Shown piece after piece: positions 20,681 to 47,442 of a DNA stretch of 64,000 nt. The position numbers were made by a program, and so were the translations under genes. The DNA lies in the NCBI RefSeq assembly GCF_000372725.1, contig NW_005202428.1:2593791-2657790 (forward strand), in the 5' to 3' direction. The stretch comes from Emiliania huxleyi CCMP1516 (Eukaryota). How positions within the stretch are numbered: position 1 is the stretch's first letter; the number at the start of each line of letters is the position of its first letter. The notes under the pieces were generated by a model. That model worked only from the letters and a program-made list of their open reading frames with translations. It searched no databases and was not told the origin of the DNA.

Positions 20681-20850
20681 AGAACTAGCCGGGGCAGTCG
20701 GAGAAGGGGCAACTCCGTGCACTGACGGTCGGCCGCCAGAAAACACTGCGTGGATCGCGTCACACCACTCCTCGCTACCCAACGCGGCCAAAGGATATCC
20801 ACCTCGAGAACCTCGAGAAGGCTGTGAATACTCGAGCCGGGTTCGGTGCT

Positions 20851-22857
20851 ATGTCGCGCTCGAGCAACAACCGCAAGCAGCCGCTCGACTACGGCACCGC
20901 GGCCGCCATCCGAGACCTGTGCGTGCACCAGGCGTGGCACGCGGTCAACCTGGCCAGCGGCGTGCCCTCCGACGCCAGGTGCGACGCCGAGGCGATGAAC
21001 GAGTCAATCGAGCGGCTCGAGCACCTATCCACGCGGGCAATCGAGCACGCCAAGGAGCTGGCGAGCTCGTGCGCCTGGCACGCCGCGCTGCAGCGCATGG
21101 AGGAGGGCTACCTCGGCAGCGGCCGGGTTCCGGCCGCCTCGCCCTTCTCTTCGTCCGACGCGGCGGCCGAGGCGATCGAGCCGCTCAAGGTGGTGCACCG
21201 CACGCTGGCGCCCTCCAATGGGGACCTGTACGAGCTCGCCAGCGGCGCCGCGTGGTACGCCGCTAACGAGCGCTCTGGGCTCGAGGACGAGTCTGCTGCG
21301 AGCCTGGTCAGCATGTGCCGTGCGTTTGAGCGGCTCTACCGGCTGCAGCGCCGCCCGTGGCGCGGCGTCAACCTCGGCGGGTGGCTGCTGCTCGAGCGGG
21401 GCCCGTCGGCACCCTTCTACGAGGCGAACGGCATCGTCGGCGACGACGGAGAGTGGGACGCCACCGAGGCGCTAAGCCGAGACGGCGGCTCCGGCGCCGT
21501 CACCGCTCTCGCCTACCACCGGCAGAGGCACTTTCGGGAGGGCGATTTGGCCGAGATTGCGCGGCGCGGCTTCAACTCTGTCCGGCTCCCCTTCGGCTAC
21601 TGGATCGTGACCGGACCGACGCACGGAGACCCGTACGTCGGCCCCTCGATCGAGCTCATCGACGCCGCCGTCGAGTGGGCCGCCCGGCACGGGCTGCAGG
21701 TCCTTCTCGACTTGCACGGCAACCCGGGCGGAGAGACGGAGGAGAAGGTCTGCGGCCGAGCGAAGCCGGACTGGAGCTGGGAGGACTGGAGGCGCGACGA
21801 GGCGCTCGAGGTGATCGCGCTCCTTGCCGATCGGTACAAGGAGTACGACCATGTGACCGGGCTGCAGGTTTGCAACGAGCCGTCGCGCAGCTGCCCGCCC
21901 TCGGAGCTGCTCGCCCACTACATCGAGGCGGTGGCGACGGTACGCGAGGCGGGCATGCCGCCCGAGCGGGTGTCGGTTGTCTGCCCGTGCTACTTCCTCG
22001 AAGAGGACCGGCGCGACTTTCTCAAGGAGTGGCGCGAGGCGTGCGCGGCCGGCGAGCTCGACGGTGCGGTGCTCGACATGCACCCGTACTTCTTCACTCC
22101 GTGGTCGAACGAGGTGACGAGAGGGCTCGTCTCGGACCAGGCGCGGGAGGAGGCAGAGTCGTGGGACTTGCTGCCCGCGTGCGTGGTCGGCGAGTTCTCT
22201 GCCGCGTTCCACACCTACCAGGGAGAGCCGTGCTGCGACCGCTCCGCCGAGGGGCGACAGTTGCTCAACGACTTTCTGCGCGTGCAGCAGGACGCGTACT
22301 CGCAGCATGCGACACACGGCCACTTTTACTGGACGTGGTCGGATGGGGCGGTGGGATGGTCGCGGCAGGCAGCGTACCTCGACGCTCCAGACGCGGTGCC
22401 AGAGGAGGACGAGGACGAGGAGGACGAGGAGGGCGAGGGGGAGGAAGAGGACGAGGAGGAGATGGACGAGGCAGAGGACGAGGAGGAGGAGGAGGAGGAG
22501 GAGGAGGACGAGGATATGGGCGAGGAAGGCGAGGAGGAGGAGGAGGATGGGGAGGAGGAGGAGGAGGAGGAGGAGGACGAGCAGATGCAGGAGGAGGAGG
22601 AGGAGGAGGAGGAGGAGGAGGAGGAGGAGGAGGAGGAGGAGGAGGAGGGGGAGGGGGAGGAGGAGGAAGAGGGCGAGGACGGCGAGGACGGCGAGGAGGA
22701 GGGCGAGGAGGAGGGCGAGGAGGAGGAGGAGGAGGGCGAGGAGGAGGAGGAGAGCGAGAGCGAGGACGGGCGCGGGCGTCGGGTGCGGCGATCTCGAGCC
22801 TCGTCCCGTGCCTCGTCGCCGTATGCCCTACGCACGAAGCGCCTCTCCGGCAGCTAG
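20851..22857 (+). CDS. Glycoside hydrolase family 5 (exo-1,3-beta-glucanase-like) with long acidic tail
   Basis: RGVNLGGWLLLE, GFNSVRLPFGYW, LLDLHG, catalytic NEP and VGEFS; intronless; poly-Glu/Asp tail (~22403-22766) then a basic C-terminus. Confidence 0.92.
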   Translation: MSRSSNNRKQPLDYGTAAAIRDLCVHQAWHAVNLASGVPSDARCDAEAMNESIERLEHLSTRAIEHAKELASSCAWHAALQRMEEGYLGSGRVPAASPFSSSDAAAEAIEPLKVVHRTLAPSNGDLYELASGAAWYAANERSGLEDESAASLVSMCRAFERLYRLQRRPWRGVNLGGWLLLERGPSAPFYEANGIVGDDGEWDATEALSRDGGSGAVTALAYHRQRHFREGDLAEIARRGFNSVRLPFGYWIVTGPTHGDPYVGPSIELIDAAVEWAARHGLQVLLDLHGNPGGETEEKVCGRAKPDWSWEDWRRDEALEVIALLADRYKEYDHVTGLQVCNEPSRSCPPSELLAHYIEAVATVREAGMPPERVSVVCPCYFLEEDRRDFLKEWREACAAGELDGAVLDMHPYFFTPWSNEVTRGLVSDQAREEAESWDLLPACVVGEFSAAFHTYQGEPCCDRSAEGRQLLNDFLRVQQDAYSQHATHGHFYWTWSDGAVGWSRQAAYLDAPDAVPEEDEDEEDEEGEGEEEDEEEMDEAEDEEEEEEEEEDEDMGEEGEEEEEDGEEEEEEEEDEQMQEEEEEEEEEEEEEEEEEEEGEGEEEEEGEDGEDGEEEGEEEGEEEEEEGEEEEESESEDGRGRRVRRSRASSRASSPYALRTKRLSGS

Positions 22858-23699
22858 CGCCACGGCCTCTTCATGTCCCAGCGACTGGCGAGGGTCTCCG
22901 GCGCGGGCCACTGCGTCTGCCTCGCCCGCCGTGTTTCGCAAACCTCACGCGAGCCAACTGCGCGGCGACGCCAAGCTCTCCCGCCCGAGGGGGCCGCGCC
23001 TCGCTCCAGTGGGCGCGCCCCCGTGCTCCGGGTTGCGCTTGGGGCAAGTCTGGAAGTGCTCTATGGCTTGCTCTCCAGTCGTGACCGGCGTGCCGAGTGG
23101 ATCGGCAGGGTCGGGGTGGGACCTGGCGCCGTGGAGCGTTGGATCGGCGGCAGCCAGTCGCCTGCCTCCGATCCCGCGCTCCTGCGGCCACCGCCGCGGC
23201 GCGAGTCTGACGCGTGGCAGGGGCCTGCCGTGGAAGCCTTGCCTTGGGGTTGACTCACGCGCTCCTGCGCTGAGGGTTCTCGCCTGAGAGCTCGAGGAGG
23301 CGCGCGCAGCAGCCGCCGGCCCGCCTCTCAGTTTGCACGCCGCCCAGCGAGTAGAGTACACAGAGTGCCTCTCGCTCTGTCGTCAGTTCCCGAACTCACG
23401 GTTATCACATGCACATGCACATGCACGTAAAGGGCAAAGCCGCGTACCGTACAGTGGGTAGTATTACACATTTTTTGAAGAGTTTCAGTTAACATCAAGG
23501 TGTTGCAGTGAAGAGTGATGCGAGTTGCGACACTGCGTGTCAATTTAATCTTTTCCCCTTTAGGAAGTTTAGCCTTTTCCCTCTTCGCACACACTGGTGT
23601 CGGTCCCCAGAGGCTCCAGCGTCCACCCGCCGGGACGGGACCCCCAGCCCGTGTGTGCAGTGTAGAGCGCGCTTTCCTGCGTGCCACAAGGCTGTGTGC

Positions 23700-23702
<3 letters not shown>

Positions 23703-23780
<78 letters not shown>
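23703..23780. repeat. (GT)n microsatellite abutting the left inverted-repeat arm
   Basis: About 39 GT units. Confidence 0.98.
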
Positions 23781-23781
<1 letters not shown>

Positions 23782-25610
23782 ATACATCGAGATCCTCTGC
23801 GGGACACCAGTAGATTTGTACATTTGTTTGTTGAGTGGAGATCGTAGATGCCGATCAGAGATCTTCCACACACAGCATCTCTCACAAAACTCAGAGTCCT
23901 TTAACTGAAGATAGAGATCTTGAGCTGCCGCCATCGTCACCTCGAGATCTCAGGCCGGAGACGGAGATGTTGACTTCGCGCCAAAGGCGCCTCGAGATCT
24001 CAGGCCGGAGACGGAGATGTTGACTTCGCGCCAAAGGCGCCTCGAGAATCGTGTGGCCGACTGGAGATTGCAAAATGGCGCGAAAAGAGGGGGGAGATCC
24101 GCTTGAAGGTGTGAAAGGAAAAGAGCACCCCCTTGGAAGGACGTCGATCCCCCCCCCTGACACGCCTCCCCCACGAGATTGGAGCAGATTGGAGATTGGA
24201 GACAGGAGATGGAGATCGGAGACCGCGCCTCCTTGTTATGAGCGCGCCGCGATGGAGCTCACCTCGTTAGTCTCTGGCATGACCGAGTTCGCCGCGAACC
24301 TGTATCCTCTAAAGACCGAGGAGGAGCTCGTGGCGCTCCTGAGTGGCATGCACCACTTCCCACCTGGCGTGCCTGAGCGTGCCCGTCGCGTCCATGAGCG
24401 GCTGCCCGCCGGGTCGGCACTCTGCTCCTCTGACGTCGGCGTGCTGATTGACCGGCTCGACACGGAGGGAGGCCTTGGCGGGTTGCACAAGCATCTCGCG
24501 CACACAAGGAGGACCCTCTACATTTCGTTCCGAGCACCAACACGGAGGCCGCGGAGCAGGCGTGTCGAGCCGCCCTCTCGCCCTGCACGCGTTGCCCCCT
24601 TGTCACATGTGATGTGCATGCACATGTGCATGTGCAAATCCGCCTGTATAGGCCTTCGTCTTTCTCGCTCGCTCGAAGCACATCTTCCGCCACAACGTGC
24701 CACATGAATGAGGCGTCCTCCCCCCCCCTCCCTCCCCCCCCCCACACACACACACAAAATTATTTGTTGATGGCAGCGCGAACCACACGATAACGCCCCC
24801 AGTTCGGCGTACACAGTCATAGACCGCGCGCGCAGCGCGCTCCGTGTTTGCATACCGCCCTGGCGGACTCGTTTACACTTCCTAGCTCAAGCCAGGCGCC
24901 CCGCAGGCCATAAAGAGGAGCGCAGATTAAAATGGCGCCGCAGGCTCCCCGGGCCGTCCGCGCACCAGTAACCTTTAAAAAACAAAAAGATCATCACAGC
25001 GGCCTCTGTGATCTCCAATCTCCAATCTCCAATCTCGATCTCCAATCTCGATCTCCAAACAATCTACCAAGCCAGACTGCTACTGCCTGCGATCTACTAC
25101 TCTCTTGCAGAGATCTCGATTACTCCCACACAGCCATCCACATGGCCACACCCTCGAGCCGGGCATCTGATCGGCTAACCATCTGCCCGCGCGCATCGAG
25201 GGAACCAAAGGCCTTCATGTACACTTGCGACCGGATCTCGGCGGGCTGATCGGCAAGGTGGTGGGTCGGCCCGACTCCGATCCGAAGGAACGTGGGAGCC
25301 TCGACGGCCATGCCGTCCTTCTCGCCCTTCACCACGTGGTCGACCTTCGCCAGGGTCTGTGCGACGGCTTCGACCTTGTGGCGGAACCCGTCGCGTGGCG
25401 CCCCTGAGGCCTTGCTCCAGATCACCGACAGCTCGTCTCCGCCAGTGCGGTACACCACCCCCTTCATCTCCTCGGTACTAGCCTCCTTCACCACCGAGCT
25501 CAGCAGAGCGGCGTAGTGGTGGAGCGCGCCATCGCCTGCGACGTGGTCGATGGTGTCGTTCACGCCCTTGAAGCCCTGGATGTCGATCGAGAAGAACGCT
25601 GGATCGATGC
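23781..25610 (-). repeat. Left arm of ~1.8-kb inverted repeat (TIR element copy plus GGDEF gene fragment)
   Basis: Reverse complement of 29691-31468 at near identity. The ORF track shows mirrored translations (e.g. 24932+ vs 30372-, 24051+ vs 31254-). Confidence 0.97.
25120..25610 (-). pseudogene. Third, 5'-truncated copy of the GGDEF domain
   Basis: IDPAFFSIDIQGFKGVND...GGDEL...MAVWE*; lacks ankyrins and the DGLTKLLN helix; one-codon indel (DQPAEI vs DQAETEI). Confidence 0.85.
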
Positions 25611-25730
25611 AGATTTTTTGTCGTTTTGTGGAATAGACAAGGTACACATTTTCTACAACATGCACATGCACACGCACATGCTGCACATGTCACATGCAAT
25701 GAGTAATCGTCTGGCAGGTACAGGTCGCTG

Positions 25731-27158
25731 TCACAGCATCTCCCTTGCGCCATTGGCACTCTTGTAGCTATTGTCCTCGTTTGGCGATGGAGCGTCGTCA
25801 CACGCGCGGCACAGGCCAGCAATCATCTGCATGTCAAAGGGTGGCGGCGGCACGGACCACACGCGCACGTGCTTGCGTGCGAGCGGGTCGCGCTCGATGA
25901 GGCCGATGAGGGCGTTTGCAAAATCGGTCAACTCAAAGGCGAGCGACACCTCCGATGTGTCCACCGGCGCGCCCGCGGTCGCCGTGTTCGCGCTAGTCAC
26001 GTCGTCGCGCAGCAGGCTCGCCAGGAGGGAGCGTGCGCTCACTAGAAGGCGGCACGGTCGCTGCGCACAGTTCATCGCGGCAGACACGTGGCGCTCCACG
26101 ACACTGAAGGCATGCTCATTGAAGGCCTGGTCCTCCTCCGCCATCGCCTGCTCATCGAGCTCCTTCTGGTGGCGCCGGCGCTGATAGAGCGCGCCGACCG
26201 CCGTGGGGATGTCGAACATGCCATCCGGGTGCGGCGCCTGGGTGGGCGGCAGAAAGTTGACGGGCATCGGGCGGAAGCCCTGGTCGCCGATAATCGTGCC
26301 GCTTGGGCTGGCGAGCTTGCGGATCTCGCCGCGCAGATCCGCGTCGGGCAGATCGCGCGGGATGAGGATGTTGAGCGCGCATGAGCCTCGAAGCAACGCC
26401 TCATCCTTGCCGCCCAGCATGATTGGCAAAGTGGCAGCCGCGCTGCCCGGCGAGCGCTTCTTGCCGCCATCGATGGCGCGAACGATGGGCTGCACAAAGT
26501 TGAAGAAGTAGCCCATCGCGATGCCCGTGCCCGCCAGGCTGAGCGCGCGACGGTACTTACGCACGAGCGCCGCGACGTCCGCCTCCGGGTCATCCTCGAG
26601 CATGAAGAGACCGTTGATAAAGTGCACGGTGCCGATGATGAATGCGAGCTCGAACAGCTCGCCACGCGTAACCGGCTCCCTATAAGAGCGGAGGAGGCAG
26701 GCCAGCGCGAGCAACACGAGCGCGACAGCGGCGCGCGTCACGTCCTTGGCGCGCCGGGTGCCGAGCCCAAGCAGCGCGGCCCACGTGGCGAGCACAAAGG
26801 GCAGCAGCGTGGCCTCGAAGAGCATGAGACCGATGCTGCCCGTGAGTGCATGGAGAGCCTCATTGTCTTCCTCTGTACTGGCGCGGGGCGCCTTGCCCGC
26901 AAGCAGCCGGCCGTGCAGGGTGGCACAGTCGGTCGCACTGTCGGTCGCATTCACTTCCTGCATGGCGGCGGAAACGGCGTGCGCTGCTCCGCTCAACGCA
27001 AGCGCCGCAAACAGTGCAAAGTCGGCGATGCGCTTGGCGTCCCATTCGCCGACCGGTCGGGGCGCCTCCTTCAGCGGTGCTTTGAGCGCGTAGCATGCCC
27101 CAATTGGCACGGCGTCGTCGGCGTGTCGTGGGGGGCTGACGACGTTCATTGGTTGCAT
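25731..27158 (-). CDS. 4-TM bacterial-like STING cyclic-dinucleotide receptor
   Basis: Four hydrophobic segments, then STING motifs in the expected order: AGTGIAMGYFFNFVQPI, LNILIPRDL, FRPMPVNF, MFDIPTAVGAL, ELTDFANALIGLI..D...VRV. Intronless, 475 aa. Confidence 0.82.
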   Translation of the reverse strand: MQPMNVVSPPRHADDAVPIGACYALKAPLKEAPRPVGEWDAKRIADFALFAALALSGAAHAVSAAMQEVNATDSATDCATLHGRLLAGKAPRASTEEDNEALHALTGSIGLMLFEATLLPFVLATWAALLGLGTRRAKDVTRAAVALVLLALACLLRSYREPVTRGELFELAFIIGTVHFINGLFMLEDDPEADVAALVRKYRRALSLAGTGIAMGYFFNFVQPIVRAIDGGKKRSPGSAAATLPIMLGGKDEALLRGSCALNILIPRDLPDADLRGEIRKLASPSGTIIGDQGFRPMPVNFLPPTQAPHPDGMFDIPTAVGALYQRRRHQKELDEQAMAEEDQAFNEHAFSVVERHVSAAMNCAQRPCRLLVSARSLLASLLRDDVTSANTATAGAPVDTSEVSLAFELTDFANALIGLIERDPLARKHVRVWSVPPPPFDMQMIAGLCRACDDAPSPNEDNSYKSANGAREML

Positions 27159-27370
27159 GTATTGCGGGCCCGATCCCTACCCGCCTTGGTGGGCCACGGC
27201 CTGCGCGGGCGAGTGTTGGGATTGTTTCTTTATTTCTCTTTGCATCTCTCTCTTTTCGCGCTTTATTTCTTAAAAACAGAAATCTTGTCTACACCGCCTC
27301 TCAACGCACACATCCCCGAAGCGAAAAGAAGAAAATCGGTTGCGCTAGCAAAGGAGGCGCGGCGGATCTC
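27159..27370. promoter_or_regulatory. Putative bidirectional promoter between the STING-like and GGDEF genes
   Basis: 212-bp AT/pyrimidine-rich spacer between divergent ATGs at 27158 (-) and 27371 (+). Confidence 0.55.
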
Positions 27371-30184
27371 ATGGGCGCGTGCGGTTCACGGAGTGTCGGC
27401 GCCGATATGCAAGAGGGTGAGCAGGTCACGCAGGAAGAGGGCAGCGAGCTTTCGTACGCGTTGCCTGTCGCGCACAAAGCGAACAAGCAGGGCATCGCTC
27501 TCTGCGACGCGTGCGCCGGCACGGACGTCGAGGCTGTTCGCCAGCTGCTGGATGCGGGCGCGCCTATCGACTACTGGGACGCAGACAACATGCCACCGCT
27601 CGCATCGGTGCTAACCGCGGCGCAGTACATGATGACGGAGATGCAGCTCGAAGGCACCTCCGCCGAAGAATGCAACTTCGCTGCGCGAGAGGCCATCTTC
27701 GCGCTGCTCATCGAGAAGAGCAGTCCTGCCGTGCTGGATCAGGTGTACTCTCTGGGCGACCCGTCGGACAACCTCAGTCTCCACTCGACCGCGTTGCACA
27801 CCGCGTTCCAGGCCGGCTTCCTGGACGAGGCCAATCTGTTGATCGACCACGGCGCCTCCGGCAACATTCCAGCCAAGATGCTCCCAGACAAGGTTTTCAC
27901 AGCCATCGAGTTGGTCATGAGTTCCGGGCCGCAAAGCCCGGAGTTCTTTGACACCTCCCAGCGGATCATGTGGCGACTGGACGGGTGGACGCCGCTGCAC
28001 GCCGCTGCCGTGTGGGGCAAGACGGAGAAATTTATTGAGCTGCTCGAGGCTGGAGAGGTGGACACGCAGGCTCGCACGAAGACGCAGCAGCTGACGGCGA
28101 TGGAGCTCGCCAAGCTCGGTGGGACTGACTTCGGGACCACCGGCAAGAACATGGAGGCGGTGTTGGAGACGTGGGAGGAGCAGCGGCTGGACGGGCTGAC
28201 GAAGCTGCTGAACAAGGGAGCGTTCCTGGACGACGTAGCGAAGCTGGAAGCGCGCGGCATCGATCCAGCGTTCTTCTCGATCGACATCCAGGGCTTCAAG
28301 GGCGTGAACGACACCATCGACCACGTCGCAGGCGATGGCGCGCTCCACCACTACGCCGCTCTGCTGAGCTCGGTGGTGAAGGAGGCTAGTACCGAGGAGA
28401 TGAAGGGGGTGGTGTACCGCACTGGCGGAGACGAGCTGTCGGTGATCTGGAGCAAGGCCTCAGGGGCGCCACGCGACGGGTTCCGCCACAAGGTCGAAGC
28501 CGTCGCACAGACCCTGGCGAAGGTCGACCACGTGGTGAAGGGCGAGAAGGACGGCATGGCCGTCGAGGCTCCCACGTTCCTTCGGATCGGAGTCGGGCCG
28601 ACCCACCACCTTGCCGATCAGGCGGAGACCGAGATCCGGTCGCAAGTGTACATGAAGGCCTTTGGTTCCCTCGATGCGCGCGGGCAGATGGTTAGCCGAT
28701 CAGATGCCCGGCTCGAGGGTGTGGCCATGTGGATGGCTGTGTGGGAGGGCGGCCCGGAGGCCGCGACGCCTGCACCTGCAGAAGCGGTGGTCGTGAAGGC
28801 CACTGATGACCAGGCTGACATCGCGGTTGACGGCGCCGATATGCAAGAGGGTGAGCAGGTCACGCAGGAAGAGGGCAGCGAGCTTTCGTACGCGTTGCCT
28901 GTCGCGCACAAGACGAACAGGCAGGGCATCGCTCTCTGCGACGCGTGCGCCGGCACGGACGTCGAGGCTGTTCGCCAGCTCCTCGATGCGGGCGCGCCTA
29001 TCGACTACTGGGACGCAGACAACATGCCACCGCTCGCATCGGTGCTGACCGCGGCGCAGTACATGATGACGGAGATGCAGCTCGAAGGCACCTCCGCCGA
29101 AGAATGCAACTTCGCTGCGCGAGAGGCCATCTTCGCGCTGCTCATCGAGAAGAGCAGTCCTGCCGTGCTGGATCAGGTGTACTCTCTGGGCGACCCGTCG
29201 GACAACCTCAGTCTCCACTCGACCGCGTTGCACACCGCGTTCCAGGCCGGCTTCCTGGACGAGGCCAATCTGTTGATCGACCACGGCGCCTCCGGCAACA
29301 TTCCAGCCAAGATGCTCCCAGACAAGGTTTTCACAGCCATCGAGTTGGTCATGAGTTCCGGGCCGCAAAGCCCGGAGTTCTTTGACACCTCCCAGCGGAT
29401 CATGTGGCGACTGGACGGGTGGACGCCGCTGCACGCCGCTGCCGTGTGGGGCAAGACGGAGAAATTTATTGAGCTGCTCGAGGCTGGAGAGGTGGACACG
29501 CAGGCTCGCACGAAGACGCAGCAGCTGACGGCGATGGAGCTCGCCAAGCTCGGTGGGACTGACTTCGGGACCACCGGCAAGAACATGGAGGCGGTGTTGG
29601 AGACGTGGGAGGAGCAGCGGCTGGACGGGCTGACGAAGCTGCTGAACAAGGGAGCGTTCCTGGACGACGCAGCGAAGCTGGAAGCGCGCGGCATCGATCC
29701 AGCGTTCTTCTCGATCGACATCCAGGGCTTCAAGGGCGTGAACGACACCATCGACCACGTCGCAGGCGATGGCGCGCTCCACTACTACGCCGCTCTGCTG
29801 AGCTCGGTGGTGAAGGAGGCTAGTACCGAGGAGATGAAGGGGGTGGTGTACCGCACTGGCGGAGACGAGCTGTCGGTGATCTGGAGCAAGGCCTCAGGGG
29901 CGCCACGCGACGGGTTCCGCCACAAGGTCGAAGCCGTCGCACAGACCCTGGCGAAGGTCGACCACGTGGTGAAGGGCGAGAAGGACGGCATGGCCGTCGA
30001 GGCTCCCACGTTCCTTCGGATCGGAGTCGGGCCGACCCACCACCTTGCCGATCAGGCGGAGACCGAGATCCGGTCGCAAGTGTACATGAAGGCCTTTGGT
30101 TCCCTCGATGCGCGCGGGCAGATGGTTAGCCGATCAGATGCCCGGCTCGAGGGTGTGGCCATGTGGATGGCTGTGTGGGAGTAA
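27371..30184 (+). CDS. Tandem (ankyrin repeat-GGDEF)x2 putative diguanylate cyclase with N-myristoylation/palmitoylation motif
   Basis: N-terminal MGACGS. Ankyrins (VRQLLDAGAPID, TALHTA..LLIDHGA, GWTPLHAAA). GGDEF motifs DGLTKLLNK, IDIQGFKGVNDTIDHVAGDGAL, YRTGGDEL and RIGV. Whole unit repeated at 1434-bp offset; intronless. Confidence 0.9.
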   Translation: MGACGSRSVGADMQEGEQVTQEEGSELSYALPVAHKANKQGIALCDACAGTDVEAVRQLLDAGAPIDYWDADNMPPLASVLTAAQYMMTEMQLEGTSAEECNFAAREAIFALLIEKSSPAVLDQVYSLGDPSDNLSLHSTALHTAFQAGFLDEANLLIDHGASGNIPAKMLPDKVFTAIELVMSSGPQSPEFFDTSQRIMWRLDGWTPLHAAAVWGKTEKFIELLEAGEVDTQARTKTQQLTAMELAKLGGTDFGTTGKNMEAVLETWEEQRLDGLTKLLNKGAFLDDVAKLEARGIDPAFFSIDIQGFKGVNDTIDHVAGDGALHHYAALLSSVVKEASTEEMKGVVYRTGGDELSVIWSKASGAPRDGFRHKVEAVAQTLAKVDHVVKGEKDGMAVEAPTFLRIGVGPTHHLADQAETEIRSQVYMKAFGSLDARGQMVSRSDARLEGVAMWMAVWEGGPEAATPAPAEAVVVKATDDQADIAVDGADMQEGEQVTQEEGSELSYALPVAHKTNRQGIALCDACAGTDVEAVRQLLDAGAPIDYWDADNMPPLASVLTAAQYMMTEMQLEGTSAEECNFAAREAIFALLIEKSSPAVLDQVYSLGDPSDNLSLHSTALHTAFQAGFLDEANLLIDHGASGNIPAKMLPDKVFTAIELVMSSGPQSPEFFDTSQRIMWRLDGWTPLHAAAVWGKTEKFIELLEAGEVDTQARTKTQQLTAMELAKLGGTDFGTTGKNMEAVLETWEEQRLDGLTKLLNKGAFLDDAAKLEARGIDPAFFSIDIQGFKGVNDTIDHVAGDGALHYYAALLSSVVKEASTEEMKGVVYRTGGDELSVIWSKASGAPRDGFRHKVEAVAQTLAKVDHVVKGEKDGMAVEAPTFLRIGVGPTHHLADQAETEIRSQVYMKAFGSLDARGQMVSRSDARLEGVAMWMAVWE

Positions 30185-31468
30185 TCGAGATCTCTGCAAG
30201 AGAGTAGTAGATCGCAGGCAGTAGCAGTCTGGCTTGGTAGATTGTTTGGAGATCGAGATTGGAGATCGAGATTGGAGATTGGAGATTGGAGATCACAGAG
30301 GCCGCTGTGATGATCTTTTTGTTTTTTAAAGGTTACTGGTGCGCGGACGGCCCGGGGAGCCTGCGGCGCCATTTTAATCTGCGCTCCTCTTTATGGCCTG
30401 CGGGGCGCCTGGCTTGAGCTAGGAAGTGTAAACGAGTCCGCCAGGGCGGTATGCAAACACGGAGCGCGCTGCGCGCGCGGTCTATGACTGTGTACGCCGA
30501 ACTGGGGGCGTTATCGTGTGGTTGGCGCTGCCATCAACAAATAATTTTGTGTGTGTGTGGGGGGGGGGGAGGGAGGGGGGGGGAGGACGCCTCATTCATG
30601 TGGCACGTTGTGGCGGAAGATGTGCTTCGAGCGAGCGAGAAAGACGAAGGCCTATACAGGCGGATTTGCACATGCACATGTGCATGCACATCACATGTGA
30701 CAAGGGGGCAACGCGTGCAGGGCGAGAGGGCGGCTCGACACGCCTGCTCCGCGGCCTCCGTGTTGGTGCTCGGAACGAAATGTAGAGGGTCCTCCTTGTG
30801 TGCGCGAGATGCTTGTGCAACCCGCCAAGGCCTCCCTCCGTGTCGAGCCGGTCAATCAGCACGCCGACGTCAGAGAGGAGCAGAGTGCCGACCCGGCGGG
30901 CAGCCGCTCATGGACGCGACGGGCACGCTCAGGCACGCCAGGTGGGAAGTGGTGCATGCCACTCAGGAGCGCCACGAGCTCCTCCTCGGTCTTTAGAGGA
31001 TACAGGTTCGCGGCGAACTCGGTCATGCCAGAGACTAACGAGGTGAGCTCCATCGCGGCGCGCTCATAACAAGGAGGCGCGGTCTCCGATCTCCATCTCC
31101 TGTCTCCAATCTCCAATCTGCTCCAATCTCGTGGGGGAGGCGTGTCAGGGGGGGGGATCGACGTCCTTCCAAGGGGGTGCTCTTTTCCTTTCACACCTTC
31201 AAGCGGATCTCCCCCCTCTTTTCGCGCCATTTTGCAATCTCCAGTCGGCCACACGATTCTCGAGGCGCCTTTGGCGCGAAGTCAACATCTCCGTCTCCGG
31301 CCTGAGATCTCGAGGTGCCGATGGCGGCAGCTCAAGATCTCTATCTTCAGTTAAAGATCTCTGAGTTTTGACTTTTGTGAGAGATGCTGTGTGTGGAAGA
31401 TCTCTGATCGGCATCTACGATCTCCACTCAACAAATCTACTGGTGTCCCGCAGAGATCTCGATGTATG
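29691..31468 (+). repeat. Right arm of ~1.8-kb inverted repeat
   Basis: Reverse complement of 23781-25610. Confidence 0.97.
30184..31463. mobile_element. ~1.28-kb non-autonomous TIR element rich in GAGATC/GGAGATT motifs (second copy at ~23786-25120)
   Basis: Ends ATCGAGATCTCTGC...GCAGAGATCTCGAT, flanked by GTA on both sides; internal relic ORF (MELTSLVSG...). Confidence 0.65.
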
Positions 31469-39381: not shown

Positions 39382-42300
39382 TCAATGCTCAACGCCCGCG
39401 GCGGCGGCCGGACCCCTCCCCACCCCGCTCCTCTGCGAGCCTGGCGAGTCAGCCGGCGAAGCGGTGAAGTGGCCAGCTGCGGTCGCTCCCGGCGGCGGGG
39501 TCTCAGGCAGGTCCTTCATCTGCGTCCACGTCATCGTCGCCTCGGCCTCGCGCCGCCGCCGCCGCTGCGCGCGGAGCGCCCCGCCGACGGCGACAAAGGC
39601 GGAGAGCATGGCGACAGACGCGGCGGGCGCGCCGAGGCCGAGGCCGCCGTCGCCGCGGCGCGCGCCGCGGCCGTTGGGCAGCAGGCTGGCCGGCGGTGGC
39701 GGTTGCCGATCGCGGTCGCACTTGCCGCCGCTACCGCCGTGCCGCGCGATGACTGCGGCGCCGTCTGACGCTGCGCCGTGGAAGCAGACGCAGAGCGGTG
39801 CGGAGGAGAAAGAGAGCCCGTCGTGCGAGAGGGCGAGCAGCACGGGAGCGCAGCCGTCGCTCGCGACAGACGAGGGGGCCGCGACGGCGACCAGCAGCCG
39901 CCGCTGCTCCTCCTCGTCCGAGACGACCTCGACCCTCCCGTCCGCGAGCAGCTCAAAGTCGGTCGGCAGCGCGAGGGCGAAGGGGGCGCGCACCGGGAGC
40001 AGGAAGGTCGCCGAAGCGTTCGCGCGCAGCGCCACCGCCCCGCCCGCAACCACGTCGTCCGGGTCGAGCTCAGGCGGAGGCAGCGCCGCCGACTCGCACG
40101 CCGCGCCGCGGAACCCCGGCTCACAGACACAGCGGCCCGCGTGGCAGCGGCCGCGTTCGCTACAAGCGGGGTCGCAAGCCGGCGGCGGCGGCGGGAGGGG
40201 CGCTGCTGCGGCGGCGGGGTCGACCACGGCGAGGCGGCCCGAGGCAGAGAGCCCGAGGATCTCCGGCTCGAGGCTGCAAGACGCCTTCACGGGCGGGAGC
40301 ACAAAGGAGCCGCGCGTGACGGCCACCGCCTCGAAGCTGACCGAGTGGGTGCCGGCGCTCACCCACGAGGCGGAGAAGGTGACGCGGTCGGGGCGCGTCT
40401 CGCGGCTGAAGGCGGTGCAGCGCCACCACCAGCAGCCCGAGCCCCACGCGGCGTACAGGGGCACCACGCCGCCGCCGCCGCGGCTGCTGCGGGAGGCGCC
40501 GAGCCCGCCGTCGGCGTTTGGGTCGACCGCCTCGAGGCCTGCGGGCAACCACGCGTCGACGAGCAAGTTGTGCAGCGCGTCGACCGACGACAACTGCACC
40601 GTCACTGTCACAATGGCGCCGAGCGGCACCGAAGCGAGCGGAGGCCCCACCGGCCCGTCCAAGCCCGCGTCGTGCCTGCGGATGACGCGCTCCACGCGGA
40701 GGCCGCGGCTGACGGGCTCTTCGAAGAGGTCGAATGGCACAAAATCGACCGCGAGGGCAAAGGAGACCTCGCCGTGGCCCGAGGAGAGCACGAGGAACGG
40801 CGGCGGCGAAGGCGGCAGCGCCGCCCAAGCCAGCGCGAGGGGCGGCGGCGGTGGCGCGGCGGTGGTCACCTTGAGCGTTGGGGCGGCGGAGGCGGAGGCG
40901 GGGCCTAGCGGGCCCGGCAGCCGCTTTGCGCCAACGAAGGCCGTGATGGCCACCGATGCGTCCGTGGAGGAGGTTGCGGTGTCGTAGTCTCCCAGCGCAA
41001 GCGCCACGAGGGGCAGCGCGCCTCCGTGCGAAGAATAGGCGGCGAGGCCGTTGGCCAACTTGTCAATGTTGGCAGTCACCTCTCCCGGCACGGTGGCCCC
41101 GCGCGTTGCGGCGGCGCGCGCGGCGGCGAAGGCGGCGAGCGCGTAGGAGGAGGCGGCGGCGCCCGCGTCGTTGGCCGAGCCCGAGGCGGCGGCCAGGTAG
41201 GCGGAGCGGCCACGCACGCGCAGCGACGAGGCGAGGTAGCGCAGCACGGCGAGGGCAGCGTCGGGGAGGTCCACCGGGGCGAAGCCAGGCGCGTCGGCGC
41301 CGGGCGAGCCGGGCAGGAGCATCGCCAAGGCGAATGCGGCCTTGCCCGAGGCGGAGAGGCTGTCCACCGACGACGCGAGGCGCTCGGTGGAGAGAGCGGC
41401 GGCGGTGACGGGGTCGTTCGGCTGCCACTCAGTGCCGAGAGCGAGGCGCGCGAGGGCGAGGCTCGAAAAGTCGCTCCACTCGTGTCCGCGCGCGGCGGCC
41501 TGCGCCACCTCGGCCTCGAGGCAGCCGGCGAGCGCCTTGGTCCAGGAGGCGCGCAGGGCGGCGAGGGCGGGCAGGGCCCGCAGCCTGCCTGCCAGGGCGA
41601 GCTTGCGCAGCAGGAAGAGCCCGAGGGCGGTGAGCTGCGTGTTGCAGGTGCGGTGCTCCGCCGCGTAGCTCGCCGCAGAAGGCCCGTTGTGCAGCCCGTA
41701 CTGGTTGCTCAGCTGCTCGAGCGGGGCTGCGGCGGACTCCACAGCGAGGGCGGCGGCGGCGCCGAGCGACGGCACAGACCTGCCCGCGGCGTAGGGCAGC
41801 AGCGCGGCGTGCGCTCCGACGAGGCCCAAGCAGGCGCTGGCGCCGTCGATCGCGTCGGGCGGGCTCGGATCGGCCGCCCGGAGCAAGGCGCTGGCAATGG
41901 CCTCGACTGCGGGCAGCCGGCCGGCGCCGAACGTGGCGGTGAGGCTGCCGGAGCCTGGGACCGCGCGCGGCAACGAGATGCCCTCGCGCCAGAGGCTGGG
42001 CGCAGCGGTGGCGACGAGCGCGCGCGAGGTGGCGAGTTGGACGGGCGGCTGCTGCCCGAGGATGGGAAGCTTGAGCTCGAGCGCATCGGCGGGAGCGCCG
42101 CTGGCGCTGACACGCGCGGTGAGGACGGCGGAGCCGATTGCGACGGCACGCATCTCAAAGGCGACCTCGACCGTCTGCGAGGGGGCGAGCGACAGCGTGC
42201 GATTCGTCTCGAGCAGCGAGAGTGGCGCCGGCTGCGACGTGGCCGGCGCGAGGCCGAGCGTGACTGTGGCAGCGGTCCCGGCGGGCAGGTCGGGGGCCGC

Positions 42301-45300
42301 GGTGAGGGTGACGCCGCACGAGAAGGCGTCGCCCACGCGCCCGATGCGCGGGGTGGATGCGGACAGGGAGAGCGGCTTGCGCACGAGCTGCTCGGCCGTG
42401 CCGTGCCCAAACCCGTCGCCCTTGTCCGACACGGCGTACGCGCGCAGCTCAAAGGATCCCGTGTTGTCGGGCAGTGTCCACGGCACCGTCAGCTCGCCCG
42501 ACGGCCCGACGCGCAGCGACGGGCGAAAGAGCGGCGTCGTCACGAAGTTGGATCGTACATGCACACCGGGGCCGGTGGCCGGCGGCGGCCGCCCTGCCGA
42601 GCTGCGCGAGCTCCGCGCCATTGGCATGGCGTCGTCCATGGCCTCCATCGGCGCTGCTGCTGCGAAGGCCATCATCGGCGCCGCCTTGAGCATCATCTCC
42701 GGCGCACCACCGAGAAGGTTGTCGCCGAAGAAGCCGCCATCGATCCCGTGACGCAGGTCGTCGCCATACATGCCGCCGGAGCCCGATGGTAGCTGCGTCA
42801 GGGCGCCGACGTTGGCCGCGAGCACGTCGCTCGGGTCTCGCTCGAGGTCAGACAGCTGCCAGTCGTCGGAGGCGGATGCGCGTGCGCGCCAGCTCAGCCG
42901 CAGGAAGGGGTCCGCCTCGAGCAGCGAGAGGAGCCGGGCCGAGGCGTTGGCCAGGCCGGCGGCGGAGACGAGCTGCTCGTAGGAAGAGGTTGCGGCGTAG
43001 TCGCCTCCCATCACGTCCGGGGACAGCGCACCGCCGACGTCGACGGGAGGGTTCGGCCGCAGCTGGAGGAGGGCGCGGTCCACCGCGAGCAGAGCAACCT
43101 CGCCGGCGACGGGCGAGCCGCTCGCGTCGGCCAGCCGCACCGTCACTGCGCCGGCGGCGCCCGGCAGCTCCACGGGACGCGCCGCAGTCACGGAGACGGT
43201 GATGGCGTTGGCGGGGGACGGCACCGACGCCGCCAGGTCGAAGGAGGCGAGCATCGGCGCGCGCGGCTCGAGGAGGAGCGAGGTTGGCACGTCACCCGGG
43301 AGAGCAGCGCGGCTCGCGTTCGAGGCGGCGGCGAGGTGGAGAGAGATGCGGCAGCCGCCCACACACTCCTCGCCGAGCATGAGCTTGACGGCGCCGTCGC
43401 CGGGAGGAAGCGGCGGCGGCGTGATGTGTCGCCGGCTGAGCGTGTTTCCCCACGCGACGAGCACGGCGAGGGGCGAGCCGAGCGGGTTGTAGACGCGGAT
43501 CGACGCCGTCTCGCCCCGCGCGTACGTCTCTGCGTCGAGCGCGGGAGATAGCGCCCTCTCGAGGTAGTCGGAGCCGGCTGGCTTGCGGCGCCACTGGGGC
43601 CGCGAACGGCCCAGCACCACCGCAGAGCACACCCCGCCCTCCTCGCACGCGGCGAGTAGGAAGTGGCCCATCGAGGGCAGCTGCAGCGCGCACGCTTGCG
43701 CGGTGTCGGCGCGGCCCTCCGAGCTCGTGGTCAGACCGTTGCAGCCCGGCTGGTCGCGCAGCAAGTTGGCGCTCTCCGGTGGAAGAGCGGTCGGCCGGCC
43801 GTCGACGAGCCACTCGACGCCGTGGAAGAGATCGGCGGCCGAATCGAGCTCGGGCGAGGGGCGCGCGTCCAGCGTGGCGCTCCCGTCGGCCCGCGAGAGC
43901 TGGAAGAGCGCCAGAGCCACCGTCGCACCCGCGACCGGCTCGCCGCCGAGCGCCTCGTGGCGGCGCACCGTCAGGCGCGGCGTAAAGGGGACGGAGGGCA
44001 GCTCGGAGTGCGACGGCGGCTCGAGCCGGACTGTTCGCTCGCTCAGCGCGACGGGCACTGCCAGCGACCGGCTCACCACCTCGCGGGTCGGCCCGACCCA
44101 CTCGAAGGAGAGGTGGAGCGAGTCGCCGAGCTTGAGGGGCCGCGAGGCGTTTGGCGGAGGAGACCACTCTGCGGCGAGCGAGCCTACGAAAAAGGCTCCA
44201 AGAAGGTTTCTACAGCAGGTCCCTGCAGAGGAAGAGACGTTCCCGCGGCAGGAGTGCGCCGTCCCCGCCGGTGACCAGGACCTCCTCGCCGGAGGAGGGC
44301 AGCTCCTCACCCTCCTCACCCTCCGCCGCCTCGTCGCGCGGCAAAAGGCAGTAGGAGCACGTCGGCGGGGTCGGCCGTCCGTCGACTCTCCAGCGCAGCG
44401 TGACGCGGGCGCCGCCGAGCGGAACCCCCGAGAGAGTGCGAGTGGCGAGCGAGAGGGAGACGGACCCGCCCGGGGGCACGACACGCATCGCCCCCGCGGC
44501 GACGGAGGCGTCCATCGCGACGGTCGGCGGGCGCGGGTCTGCGACGGCGAGGGTGACGCTGTCCAGGAGGCGCCGGTTGTCGCCGGGAGCGAAGCCGGGG
44601 CCGCCGCGGCGCACGAAGGCGAGGAGAGAGACGCGGTGCTCGCCGTACTGCGCGCCGGTGGGCACGGCTGTCGAGAGGGAGAAGGAGCCGCTCGACGGCT
44701 CGTAGTCGACGTCGAGCAGCGTCTCGCCGCCGTCGCCCCACCGCGCCGAGATGCGGAGGCGCGGCGGCGTGGCTGGCGAGGCGAGCGTGCCTCGCTCCAC
44801 GAGCCGCACGTAGCCGTGCAAGTGGAGAGGGTCGCCAGCCTTGTAGACGGCTCTGTCCGAGAGGAGGACGCTGCGCAACGCCGCGGCGGGCGGCGCGGAC
44901 CTTCCGGAAAGCAGACACGCGTTGGACGAGTGCGTCAGAAGAGGGGAGGTGCCAACGGCGGGCGGAGGAGCGCCCTCGCGACGGCAGCGACGGGAGGAGG
45001 AGCGTCTCGCCCGACGGCGCCTCGACGAGCAGCGCGCGGCGGTTGCGGAGGGCGGCCCTCGGCGGCGGGAGCGCCGCGACGCCGGAGCCGTCGGTGGTGG
45101 CGGTGGCGGCGGTGCGGATGTCTGAGGGCGAGCACGCGTAGCAGCCCCAATCATAGAGCGTGGCAATGGCTCCGGCGAGCGGCTTGTTGGTCGCCGTGTC
45201 GATGGCCCACACCAGCGCCGCCCCGTCGGAGGAGAGGACGTGCGCTGCGGCGGCGCTCCCCGCGGAGACGAGCGACGCCTGACGAGCCATTCACAGCTGC

Positions 45301-47442
45301 TCATCGGAGCCCATCAGGCGGCACCTTGCCCGACGAGAGACGGGCGACGCCGACGCGCGGGAGATGGAAGACCGCTCGCGGAGCCGCGTGAGCACCTGCC
45401 GCGTGCCTACGGGAAGCTTCCTAGACGGCTCCTAGACGGCTCCTAGAAGAGCCGCGTGGGAAGCTGCCGCGTGCCCCGCCGCAGCGCGCCGCCGAGGGGA
45501 GCGGTGCGCGCCTCCGCCTCGCCGCTGCCGGGGAAGGGGAAGGAGGAGAGGGCGGTGCCACCGGCGAGCAGCGCGTCGACGGCGGCGCTCCTACGTTGCG
45601 CAGCCAGGCGAGCTAAGGGCGGGAGCGCGGTGTCGTGCGGTGTGATGTCGAGGCGTTGCATGAGTGCGAGGAGTGCGAGGGCGACAAATGACTGCGTGTC
45701 TTTAGCGTGTGTGTTCAGCATCTGGGGCCGCCGCTCCGCCGCTTGGCGTCGTCCGAGAGGCCGCCGGAGAGGGCGGCGAGGAGTGCCTGGAGGGAGGGGG
45801 GGAAGCCTCAGGTGAGCGAGACTGCATGGCATTGCTTGGGGTCGTTGCGAGAGCGGAAGAGACGAGGATGGAGGCCGAAGCGGCTCTGCTGGCGAAGGGG
45901 GGGGGGGGGGGGTTGGGGGGGGCCTGGTGCGACGAGGCGGGCACAGGCGCGAGCAGCGCAGACACGGCTTCGGCCTGGCCGCACTTCTTCTTGCCGTCGA
46001 GGCACGCCGGCCCGCCTTGCACGACGGCGGGCCAGTTGTCGGGCGGGTCGAGGCCGCCCGCCCCGGAGGCGAAGCGGAGGGGCCTCCCCTGCCCGTCGGG
46101 GAGGGTGAGCCCCGCGTCTGCTGCTGCGGTGTCAAAGGTCGTGTACGAGTGCTGCAGAGGCAGGCCGAAGGCGTCCCTCACCTAGAAGGTTCCGGGAAGG
46201 TTCTGGGAAGGTGCCGGGAAGGGTTGCAGGCCGAGGGCGTCCCTCACCCGGCCCGAGCCAGAGACGGAGAGAGTGTAGCGCGTGTCGGGGAGGAGGTCCG
46301 CCTCGAGTAGCGCGACAGCGCCGCCTGCTCGCAGCTGTGCGTGTGATGACACATCCCGCTCGCCGCCCGAGCAACGGCGGCGCGGCGCCTGGCCGCGAGA
46401 GCATGAGCGGGAGAGCAGCGCCCGTGCTGTTGAGCCGCAAGCTCATCTGAGCCGCGAGAGCGTCGATGGCCACCGACGCGGCGAGCCCGTGCCGCAGCAG
46501 CAGCCGCTGCCGCCGGGCCGACGGCCGCATCGCCCTCCACTCGTCTGCTGGCGGCTCGGTCTGCCGAAAGGGGATCGAAAAGGGCAGGAGGCCGCTGAAG
46601 CGCGCCTCGACGGCGCTGCCCAGCGGGCCGCACGAGGAGTGGTACCGCGTCCCCGCAGGAAGGAGGAGCCTGTGCACGGCGCCCACGCCGAGCGGCGCGC
46701 CTATCCCACCGCGCTGCACGGACGCGTCACGGACGTGTCTGCTGCCAGACTGCCAGCGCTTCCGCCGAGCAAGGTGCGCGCCCTGCAGCGAGAGGGAGGC
46801 GCAGCTGGCGCGTTCGGCGCGGCAGGCGGAGAGGGAGAGGGTGGTGCCGCTCGCGGGCGGGTCGAGCTGGAGCGCCGAGCCGATCGCGGACCGGTCGACG
46901 GCGTGCGAAAAGTGCAGCTCCACGCTCGCGTCTGGCGGCAGCTCGAGCGCGCCCGGCGCTGCCGGCAGCAGCCGCGGCGACCACGAGCCGTTGGTGGCGG
47001 CGGCTGCGGCGGCGGAGGAGACGTCGCCGGCGCGCATGGTGAGGCCCGGCGTGGTGAAGCGGCGAGGGAAGCCGTCGGCGGCGACGCGCAGGCCCTCGTA
47101 CGACGTGAGCCCTGGCTTGACGCCGACTGAGAGATGCAGGTCGGTCGGCCAGCGCTCGTCGGGGTCGAAGCGCGCGATCGAGGTGGTGACCCAGCGCACG
47201 GATCCGGCGACGGGCGGTGAGAGAAGGAACGGGTTTAGCGATTCGGGCAGCTGGCCCGGGCCCCAGTCCGACCCGAGCGCAATGACGGCATGCGTGAAGG
47301 TCATCGTCAGCGGCTGCACGCCCAAGAGTTTGACGGTTGGAGTGGTGGCGCCGACTGCCGCCGATGAGGCGGAGGGAGTGAACGCGGCGACGCGCATGCT
47401 TTCGGCGGGTGTGGCGAGAGCCACGATGGCGAGCATGTGCAT
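39382..47442 (-). CDS. Bacterial-type alpha-2-macroglobulin family protein with EGF-like domain and C-terminal TM helix, spliced
   Basis: Signal peptide; SDRAVYKAGDPLHLHGYVR, ALLAVDRALLQL, VRSNFVTTPLF, LPDNTGSFELRAYAV, PRIGRVGD, LPAGLEAVD, ETRPDRVTF, GSFVLPP; EGF CSERGRCHAGRCVCEPGFRGAAC; TM near the C-terminus. Confidence 0.88.

Follow-up and report, generated by a model that had tools for sequence, protein, structure and literature searches.

The window analysed here is a stretch of 64,000 nucleotides from the coccolithophore Emiliania huxleyi CCMP1516 (contig NW_005202428.1, positions 2,593,791–2,657,790). It contains a pair of neighbouring genes, one for a bacteria-like STING with four membrane helices and one for a predicted diguanylate cyclase built of ankyrin repeats and GGDEF domains (Table 1). 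An earlier description made from the letters alone, here called the sequence-only reading, had reported two intronless genes lying head-to-head 212 bp apart. Both open reading frames (ORFs) are indeed open and free of introns, diverging across the spacer, and the cyclase start at 27371 is the first in-frame ATG. The term 'operon-like' used in that description does not fit, as the genes are a divergent pair sharing the spacer. Three features of the locus go beyond it: a tandem duplication, a 1.8-kb inverted repeat with a truncated GGDEF copy, and a GGDEL motif.

Table 1. Features of the STING–GGDEF locus, in window coordinates
Feature	Position	Strand	Remark
Bacteria-like four-helix membrane STING gene, 475 aa	25731–27158	−	ORF, single terminal stop
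(Ankyrin-GGDEF)x2 predicted diguanylate cyclase gene, 937 aa	27371–30184	+	ORF, single terminal stop
Spacer between both start codons, 212 bp	27159–27370		Likely shared divergent promoter region
Ankyrin-GGDEF unit 1	27394–28747	+	GGDEL motif 28424–28438, residues 352–356
Ala/Pro-rich in-frame linker joining both units	28748–28827	+	
Ankyrin-GGDEF unit 2	28828–30181	+	GGDEL motif 29858–29872; 99.3% identical to unit 1
Left arm of 1.8-kb inverted repeat	23781–25610	−	95.4% to right arm, gaps included
Right arm of inverted repeat: cyclase 3' end and downstream repeat	29691–31468	+	
Truncated inverted copy of cyclase 3' part, behind STING gene	25120–25610	−	

The minus-strand gene encodes a STING. 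Its ORF matches the Pfam family prok_STING (PF20300) with an E-value of 2.3e-9 (37.8 bits, cut-off 27.1), and hydropathy places four hydrophobic segments at residues 44–62, 105–123, 140–158 and 168–186. An AlphaFold model made from a 56-row alignment (pLDDT 80.6, pTM 0.65) has four N-terminal helices, at about 41–77, 95–130, 133–157 and 165–184, and a STING domain. Of the 75 PDB matches that Foldseek returned for this model at E ≤ 0.001, 28 are listed and every one of these is a STING. The target TM-score reaches 0.74, for a bacterial STING domain, while whole-chain TM-scores are only about 0.3. The structural comparison proposed earlier for 25731–27158, by HHpred or by AlphaFold and Foldseek against STING structures, thus returned a STING fold, and the earlier call of four transmembrane segments plus a STING domain holds. 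The claimed likeness to bacterial rather than animal STING is borne out by a profile search with the 56 rows: the top 10 of 24 matches are bacterial STING chains (E 1.7e-17 to 2.1e-8), and chains named 'stimulator of interferon genes' rank below them (best E 1.7e-5). The match of the profile to bacterial TIR-STING has an HH probability of 98.8%; no TIR domain was found in the window STING itself. An insert of about 55–60 aa precedes the last helix, within the ligand domain.

Residues 1–467 of the window STING are 99.8% identical to the public model EMIHUDRAFT_194791. Two further STING models are present in E. huxleyi, and the window protein is 82% identical to EMIHUDRAFT_108891 and 71% to EMIHUDRAFT_120249, its nearest named relatives; by these matches the locus belongs to E. 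huxleyi or to a coccolithophore nearly identical to it. A search of 1.84 billion representatives yielded 67 STING relatives, most of them membrane STINGs with four helices; those with names come from a choanoflagellate, a labyrinthulomycete and a pinguiophyte. In a tree of 56 rows (no animal rows; P0093–P0095 excluded as too short), the window protein clusters with two paralogues (100/98) and does not fall among the seven rows labelled bacterial, with deep branches that are weak (63/90). The family also includes P0122 (733 aa) and P0144, where a eukaryote-type protein joins two membrane-STING units in tandem (two prok_STING stretches). At four of 18 bacterial STING loci (L010–L013), the gene immediately ahead of a short STING gene encodes a zinc-dependent deaminase, not a cyclase.

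The ligand of the window STING is predicted to be c-di-GMP (cyclic diguanylate). Five of the six c-di-GMP determinants given in PMC8748872 are kept (N220, F221, R296, D316 and T319, placed by alignment to 7EBL and 8HWI). The c-di-GMP contacts of MySTING are N168, L169, R230, D251 and T254, and in class I STING an Arg and an Asp read the guanine, an Asn and a Thr bind the backbone, and a Phe or Leu stacks (PMC8748872). Among the 56 family rows the Arg is found in 51, the Asp in 51, the Thr in 47 and the Asn in 48.

The plus-strand product is predicted to make 3'3'-c-di-GMP from GTP. As the sequence-only reading had it, ankyrin repeats are fused to GGDEF domains: the ORF matches Pfam GGDEF (PF00990; E 4.3e-24, 85.5 bits, cut-off 23.8), Ank_2 (E 8.4e-20) and TIGR00254 (82 bits, cut-off 37.4). 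The two units differ at 9 of 1354 nucleotides, or at 4 synonymous and 4 non-synonymous codons of 440. Its likeness to known GGDEF enzymes extends to the catalytic residues – D305, K310, N313, D314, D322, R350 and G352-G353-D354-E355 align with WspR and DgcB and are kept in both units. The residues for metal binding, guanine binding and base catalysis do not vary across a seven-row GGDEF alignment, two rows of which are more distant, conventional GGDEF proteins. D322, matched by the alignment made here, is kept where the Hypr GGDEF enzymes, which make 3'3'-cGAMP, have Ser in place of the guanine-binding Asp (D348S, PMC6456294); the Hypr substitution is therefore absent, which points to c-di-GMP as the predicted product. 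The RxxD feedback motif is absent upstream of the active site, at the usual position as taken from PMC13725321. By Atlas features the protein matches bacterial GGDEF cyclases at 0.98, and the nearest conventional GGDEF matches are 33–38% identical. A clade-specific C-terminal motif is invariant across relatives of 41–48% identity, so decay of the enzyme is unlikely. The protein begins MGACGS, and a 73% identical relative, P0008, begins MGGCGT, keeping Gly2 and Cys4. This N-terminus resembles a myristoylation/palmitoylation signal, in keeping with dual lipid anchoring.

Such cyclases seem to form a family in algae. Its database records hold one or two units, the single-unit versions being 459–468 aa long. 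P0059, P0064, P0010 and P0011 combine the GGDEF clade with multi-pass membrane parts, and in P0064 an ANF-receptor-type ligand domain is present as well; they have the look of receptor diguanylate cyclases from marine eukaryotes. Six other membrane-linked members (P0013, P0014, P0015, P0146, P0147 and P0148) have a rearranged domain core, in which the C-terminal PTFLR...ARG half stands ahead of the DIQGFK...GGDE half, with the first-helix motif still in front. Such a permuted domain could have arisen from a tandem like that in the window. P0008 and P0053 are single-unit ankyrin-GGDEF proteins with 60% identity in the ankyrin part and 92% in GGDEF, and one member carries the label Phaeocystis antarctica. 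Identity this high hints at transfer, gene conversion or contamination of a transcriptome.

The pairing is real as DNA. A marine metagenome contig (L009), assembled independently, carries the same head-to-head pair at about 99% coding identity, with three amino-acid changes in STING, which argues against an assembly artefact. In sequencing run X1, one contig bridges STING, the spacer and the cyclase start (26780–27426), and the tandem joint of the cyclase is seen in runs X3 and X4 and in L009. Three independent database proteins of 938–946 aa also carry the two-unit cyclase. The RNA-library runs X4, X5 and X9 hold long contigs of each gene (in X4, STING 25644–27212 and cyclase 27397–28749), though contigs are no proof of transcription or co-regulation. 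The near-identical tandem and inverted repeats, along with the single-unit database versions, are what an assembly error could leave behind, but given these bridging contigs, joints and records a misassembled adjacency or tandem is improbable in the extreme. The same holds for a bacterial contaminant, as the window neighbours are eukaryotic (Noc2, an Atg3-type gene, a desaturase, a CLC channel and a Rab-type GTPase) and the GC content at third codon positions of the genes (0.81–0.83) lies within a window of 60–70% GC.

The annotation offers a different product, a single STING-GGDEF fusion protein. Model EMIHUDRAFT_194791 (643 aa) maps to 27158–25758 plus 25653–25123, and a GT-AG intron of 107 nt is present; the source of the fusion is the truncated inverted copy behind the STING gene. 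In this fragment the first GGDEF helix is missing and 3 nt are deleted, and L009 has no such fragment at all. Contigs of runs X1, X2, X3, X4 and X5 read unspliced through the predicted donor, the splice joint is listed in none of the seven runs compared (contigs may drop rare forms), and the clustered STING alleles shown (P0019, P0025 and P0026) end at 475 aa. That the fusion is the real product is thus very improbable, and the model is probably a prediction artefact.

The spacer is hypervariable in the middle, with at least three versions (the window, X1/X2 and L009) between coding parts that are about 99% identical. In L009 (1650–1847 of that contig) it is largely different and only 28-nt and 23-nt ends match the window well, and the X1 and X2 spacer is a further variant with clustered changes. 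For P0019, a STING allele, and P0042, a single-unit cyclase allele, the longest contig is 4231 nt each and the source is the same; perhaps one 4231-nt contig holds this pair. The 3' end of the cyclase, from window 30181 onward, also varies by allele, with the stop right after WE in the window and WEG or WEGHEDPKREL in others (variants P0042, P0044 and P0045), and run X4 shows a loose end. The repeat behind the cyclase seems to be a recent insertion or rearrangement.

Taken together, the two genes may well form an endogenous c-di-GMP synthase–receptor module, in which the ankyrin-GGDEF protein would make the ligand and the adjacent membrane STING would bind it; as a prediction from sequence, this reading is given a probability of roughly 0.55. 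The interpretation offered by the sequence-only reading stands in part: its domain calls, the bacteria-like STING and the intact-looking cyclase hold. E. huxleyi is listed with 0 for cGLR, OAS and eSMODS and 1 for STING in PMC10732462 (supplement), so the GGDEF enzyme is the obvious endogenous source of ligand. The cyclase would likely be anchored to the membrane by lipids on Gly2 and Cys4. Catalysis would need two GGDEF domains with one GTP each, both of which the tandem duplication could supply in one chain, and the ankyrin repeats would probably gate the pairing of these domains in response to a trigger. Lacking an RxxD feedback site, the enzyme would give a steep output of the kind an alarm calls for. 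The c-di-GMP would close the STING dimer through the five conserved residues. Since no TIR domain was found, the four-helix membrane part would produce the response by oligomerising, in the form of ion leak, membrane traffic or cell death.

A number of observations weigh against this reading. The locus sits in repeat-rich, recently rearranged DNA. The catalytic motif of the cyclase ends in Leu (L356) against a signature of [G/A/S]G[D/E]E[F/Y], and Lys282 stands at the position of the cross-dimer Arg of canonical enzymes (roles from PMC6456294); the protein is therefore diguanylate cyclase-like by prediction and not a canonical GGDEF cyclase. Pfam GGDEF covers only positions 3–118 of 161, leaving a clade-specific C-terminal third, and none of 11 matches of 253–805 aa is an NCBI-labelled ankyrin-GGDEF protein. 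Members of this GGDEF clade at 41–48% identity are joined to multi-pass receptor-like proteins, so the clade may have a general signalling role. The STING lid reads R-P-M instead of the RX(Y/F) of c-di-GMP-specific class I STING, in which Y232R lowered c-di-GMP binding about 1200-fold (PMC8748872), and the protein is therefore not assigned to that class; the lid Met is the family consensus (Met in 30 of 56 rows, Phe in 4) and is also found in the STING relative of the choanoflagellate Didymoeca. Recurrent adjacency of STING and GGDEF genes, as sought by the sequence-only reading, was found insofar as L009 is a second contig, but only among near-identical strains – the metagenome scan gave one locus from 578 pattern matches – and shared descent explains it. 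No GGDEF domain was found in the 64 STING-family representatives scanned (of 67 relatives), nor in P0006 and a cluster-mate of P0005. None of the 18 bacterial STING loci has a GGDEF neighbour within the flanks examined, and there is thus no sign of a ready-made bacterial operon. A viral copy was searched for and none was found.

These points bear on two other explanations. The genes could be chance neighbours, with STING a stand-alone sensor of bacterial c-di-GMP and the cyclase a member of a separate algal signalling family, brought together by local rearrangement. Such an origin accords with the narrow recurrence, the lack of fused relatives, the receptor-type architectures of the GGDEF clade, and the tandem and inverted duplications and dispersed repeat that flank the locus, and a stand-alone sensor model has been published for choanoflagellate bacteria-like STINGs (10.1101/2025.09.04.674280). 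Against it, the modelled chance of adjacency is 0.07–0.7% (2–3 STING loci, 5–30 GGDEF genes and 25–30k genes), or 1.3–2.4% with 100 GGDEF genes, in a rough, post hoc test with assumed gene numbers. Moreover, the partner is of the exact enzyme class that makes the ligand shown for such STINGs, and the spacing resembles the 178 bp of a functional choanoflagellate cGLR-STING pair. A cell with its own c-di-GMP and a receptor for it would presumably couple the two wherever the genes sit. Chance adjacency is accordingly rated as rather unlikely, though a serious contender. The pair could also be linked in function while the GGDEF protein is not a c-di-GMP synthase, being weak or inactive, making another dinucleotide, or acting as a nucleotide-binding regulator of STING. 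The GGDEL motif, the Lys at the cross-dimer Arg position, the divergent C-terminal third and the lid without the class I aromatic residue would all suit this. The catalytic residues invariant over seven rows, the Atlas match and the conserved C-terminal motif, which argues against decay, make it distinctly improbable.

The DNA around the pair is eukaryotic in its genes and rich in repeats. The non-coding part of the left arm is a dispersed multi-copy repeat, represented by many short loose-ended contigs with a summed depth of up to 635 in run X1 and up to 1063 in X2, against a depth of about 10–60 for the STING gene. A long CA/GT microsatellite (23691–23790) lies at the outer end of this arm, and a GH5 cellulase-family gene with a long acidic tail at 20824–22857 (+). 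On the other side, 9 kb from the pair, 39385–45313 (−) holds a large alpha-2-macroglobulin/thioester-protein-like gene with EGF repeats, which belongs to an immune-type protein family. The statement that no CD-NTase is visible in the window was upheld: no nucleotidyltransferase family was found in the 63 of 83 window frames of at least 250 aa that were scanned, a scan that took in frames of this length and not shorter exons, nor in four locus proteins.

A role of the synthase–receptor module in defence against viruses or bacteria is plausible, and is the least supported step; the antiviral version is the boldest and remains doubtful. More tentatively still than the module itself, the locus could be pictured as a coccolithophore immune cassette similar to the bacterial cyclic-oligonucleotide-based antiphage signalling system (CBASS), in which an ankyrin-gated single-chain GGDEF cyclase would fire the adjacent STING upon infection. 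If so, STING activation would have a third route next to foreign nucleotides and CD-NTase/cGAS, and the cassette would belong to a broader c-di-GMP network in algae that also includes receptor-type and rearranged GGDEF enzymes. E. huxleyi blooms are ended by giant viruses, and the pair would be a candidate cell-autonomous defence pathway for this alga.

The question of whether and how bacteria-like STINGs work without CD-NTases was left open in PMC10732462, and the choanoflagellate preprint (10.1101/2025.09.04.674280) answers it with the sensing of foreign c-di-GMP: two choanoflagellate bacteria-like STINGs bind c-di-GMP, at Kd values of 0.59 and 1.75 uM. The locus offers a two-gene, intron-free test of the other answer, that a GGDEF enzyme of the eukaryote itself supplies the ligand. 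Dictyostelium is the sole eukaryote in which c-di-GMP synthesis is known, according to PMC10399225; if the prediction is right, E. huxleyi would belong to a second such lineage, and the first in which a candidate receptor adjoins the enzyme; it would also show that an unrelated fold can take the synthase's place in STING signalling. The window STING itself is already catalogued in the supplement of PMC10732462 (P038452), with a GGDEF Pfam row that is the sole one in the file; in the light of the evidence above, the public gene model EMIHUDRAFT_194791 is flagged as a probable false fusion. The accessible main text of that paper has nothing on GGDEF, cyclase, diguanylate, c-di-GMP or Emiliania, the accessible text of the preprint does not mention GGDEF, diguanylate or haptophyte, and no earlier report of a GGDEF-STING pair was found in the literature searched, subscription papers lying outside the search. 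The pair thus appears to be a new form of synthase-plus-STING module.

Adjacency of a synthase and STING in a protist has a precedent in the cGLR-STING pairs of the choanoflagellates Monosiga brevicollis and Salpingoeca macrocollata (10.1101/2025.09.04.674280), where synthase and STING genes also lie about 200 bp apart (178 bp) in a unicellular eukaryote. In those pairs a cGAS-like CD-NTase produces 2'3'-cGAMP and the STING falls with animal STINGs, whereas the window has a non-homologous GGDEF enzyme with ankyrins and a bacteria-like STING. The stand-alone bacteria-like STINGs (PMC10732462; DgSTING and SdSTING of 10.1101/2025.09.04.674280) share with the window protein a prok_STING domain behind four helices and a host without a detected CD-NTase, but they are described as sensors of foreign c-di-GMP without a partner cyclase; the window STING has a candidate cyclase adjacent and an insert in its ligand domain.

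Bacterial CBASS with a CD-NTase and STING (Cap12 TIR-STING; PDB 8HWJ, 9LMQ, 8HWI, 7UN9 and 7EBL) has the STING fold, a synthase beside the receptor, and Asn, Phe/Leu, Arg, Asp and Thr as c-di-GMP contacts. The window pair differs in its eukaryotic host, its divergent orientation, a GGDEF protein in place of the CD-NTase, a four-helix membrane domain in place of TIR, and the lid. Dictyostelium DgcA, set beside the window by description, is likewise a bacterial-type diguanylate cyclase in a eukaryote; its product is a developmental signal, with STING named there for mammals only, and the algal enzyme, a tandem fused to ankyrins, comes from a distinct GGDEF clade. With WspR, PleD and DgcB the cyclase shares the motifs DxLT.L.N, D(I)xxFKxxND, HxxGD and RxGGDE, but its input is ankyrin rather than receiver or PAS, each chain holds two catalytic domains, the RxxD site is missing, and the GGDEL motif and clade-specific C-terminus set it apart. 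The pair is predicted, by analogy, to work like the CD-NTase-STING systems of CBASS and the cGLR-STING pairs of choanoflagellates while belonging to neither, because its synthase is a GGDEF protein.

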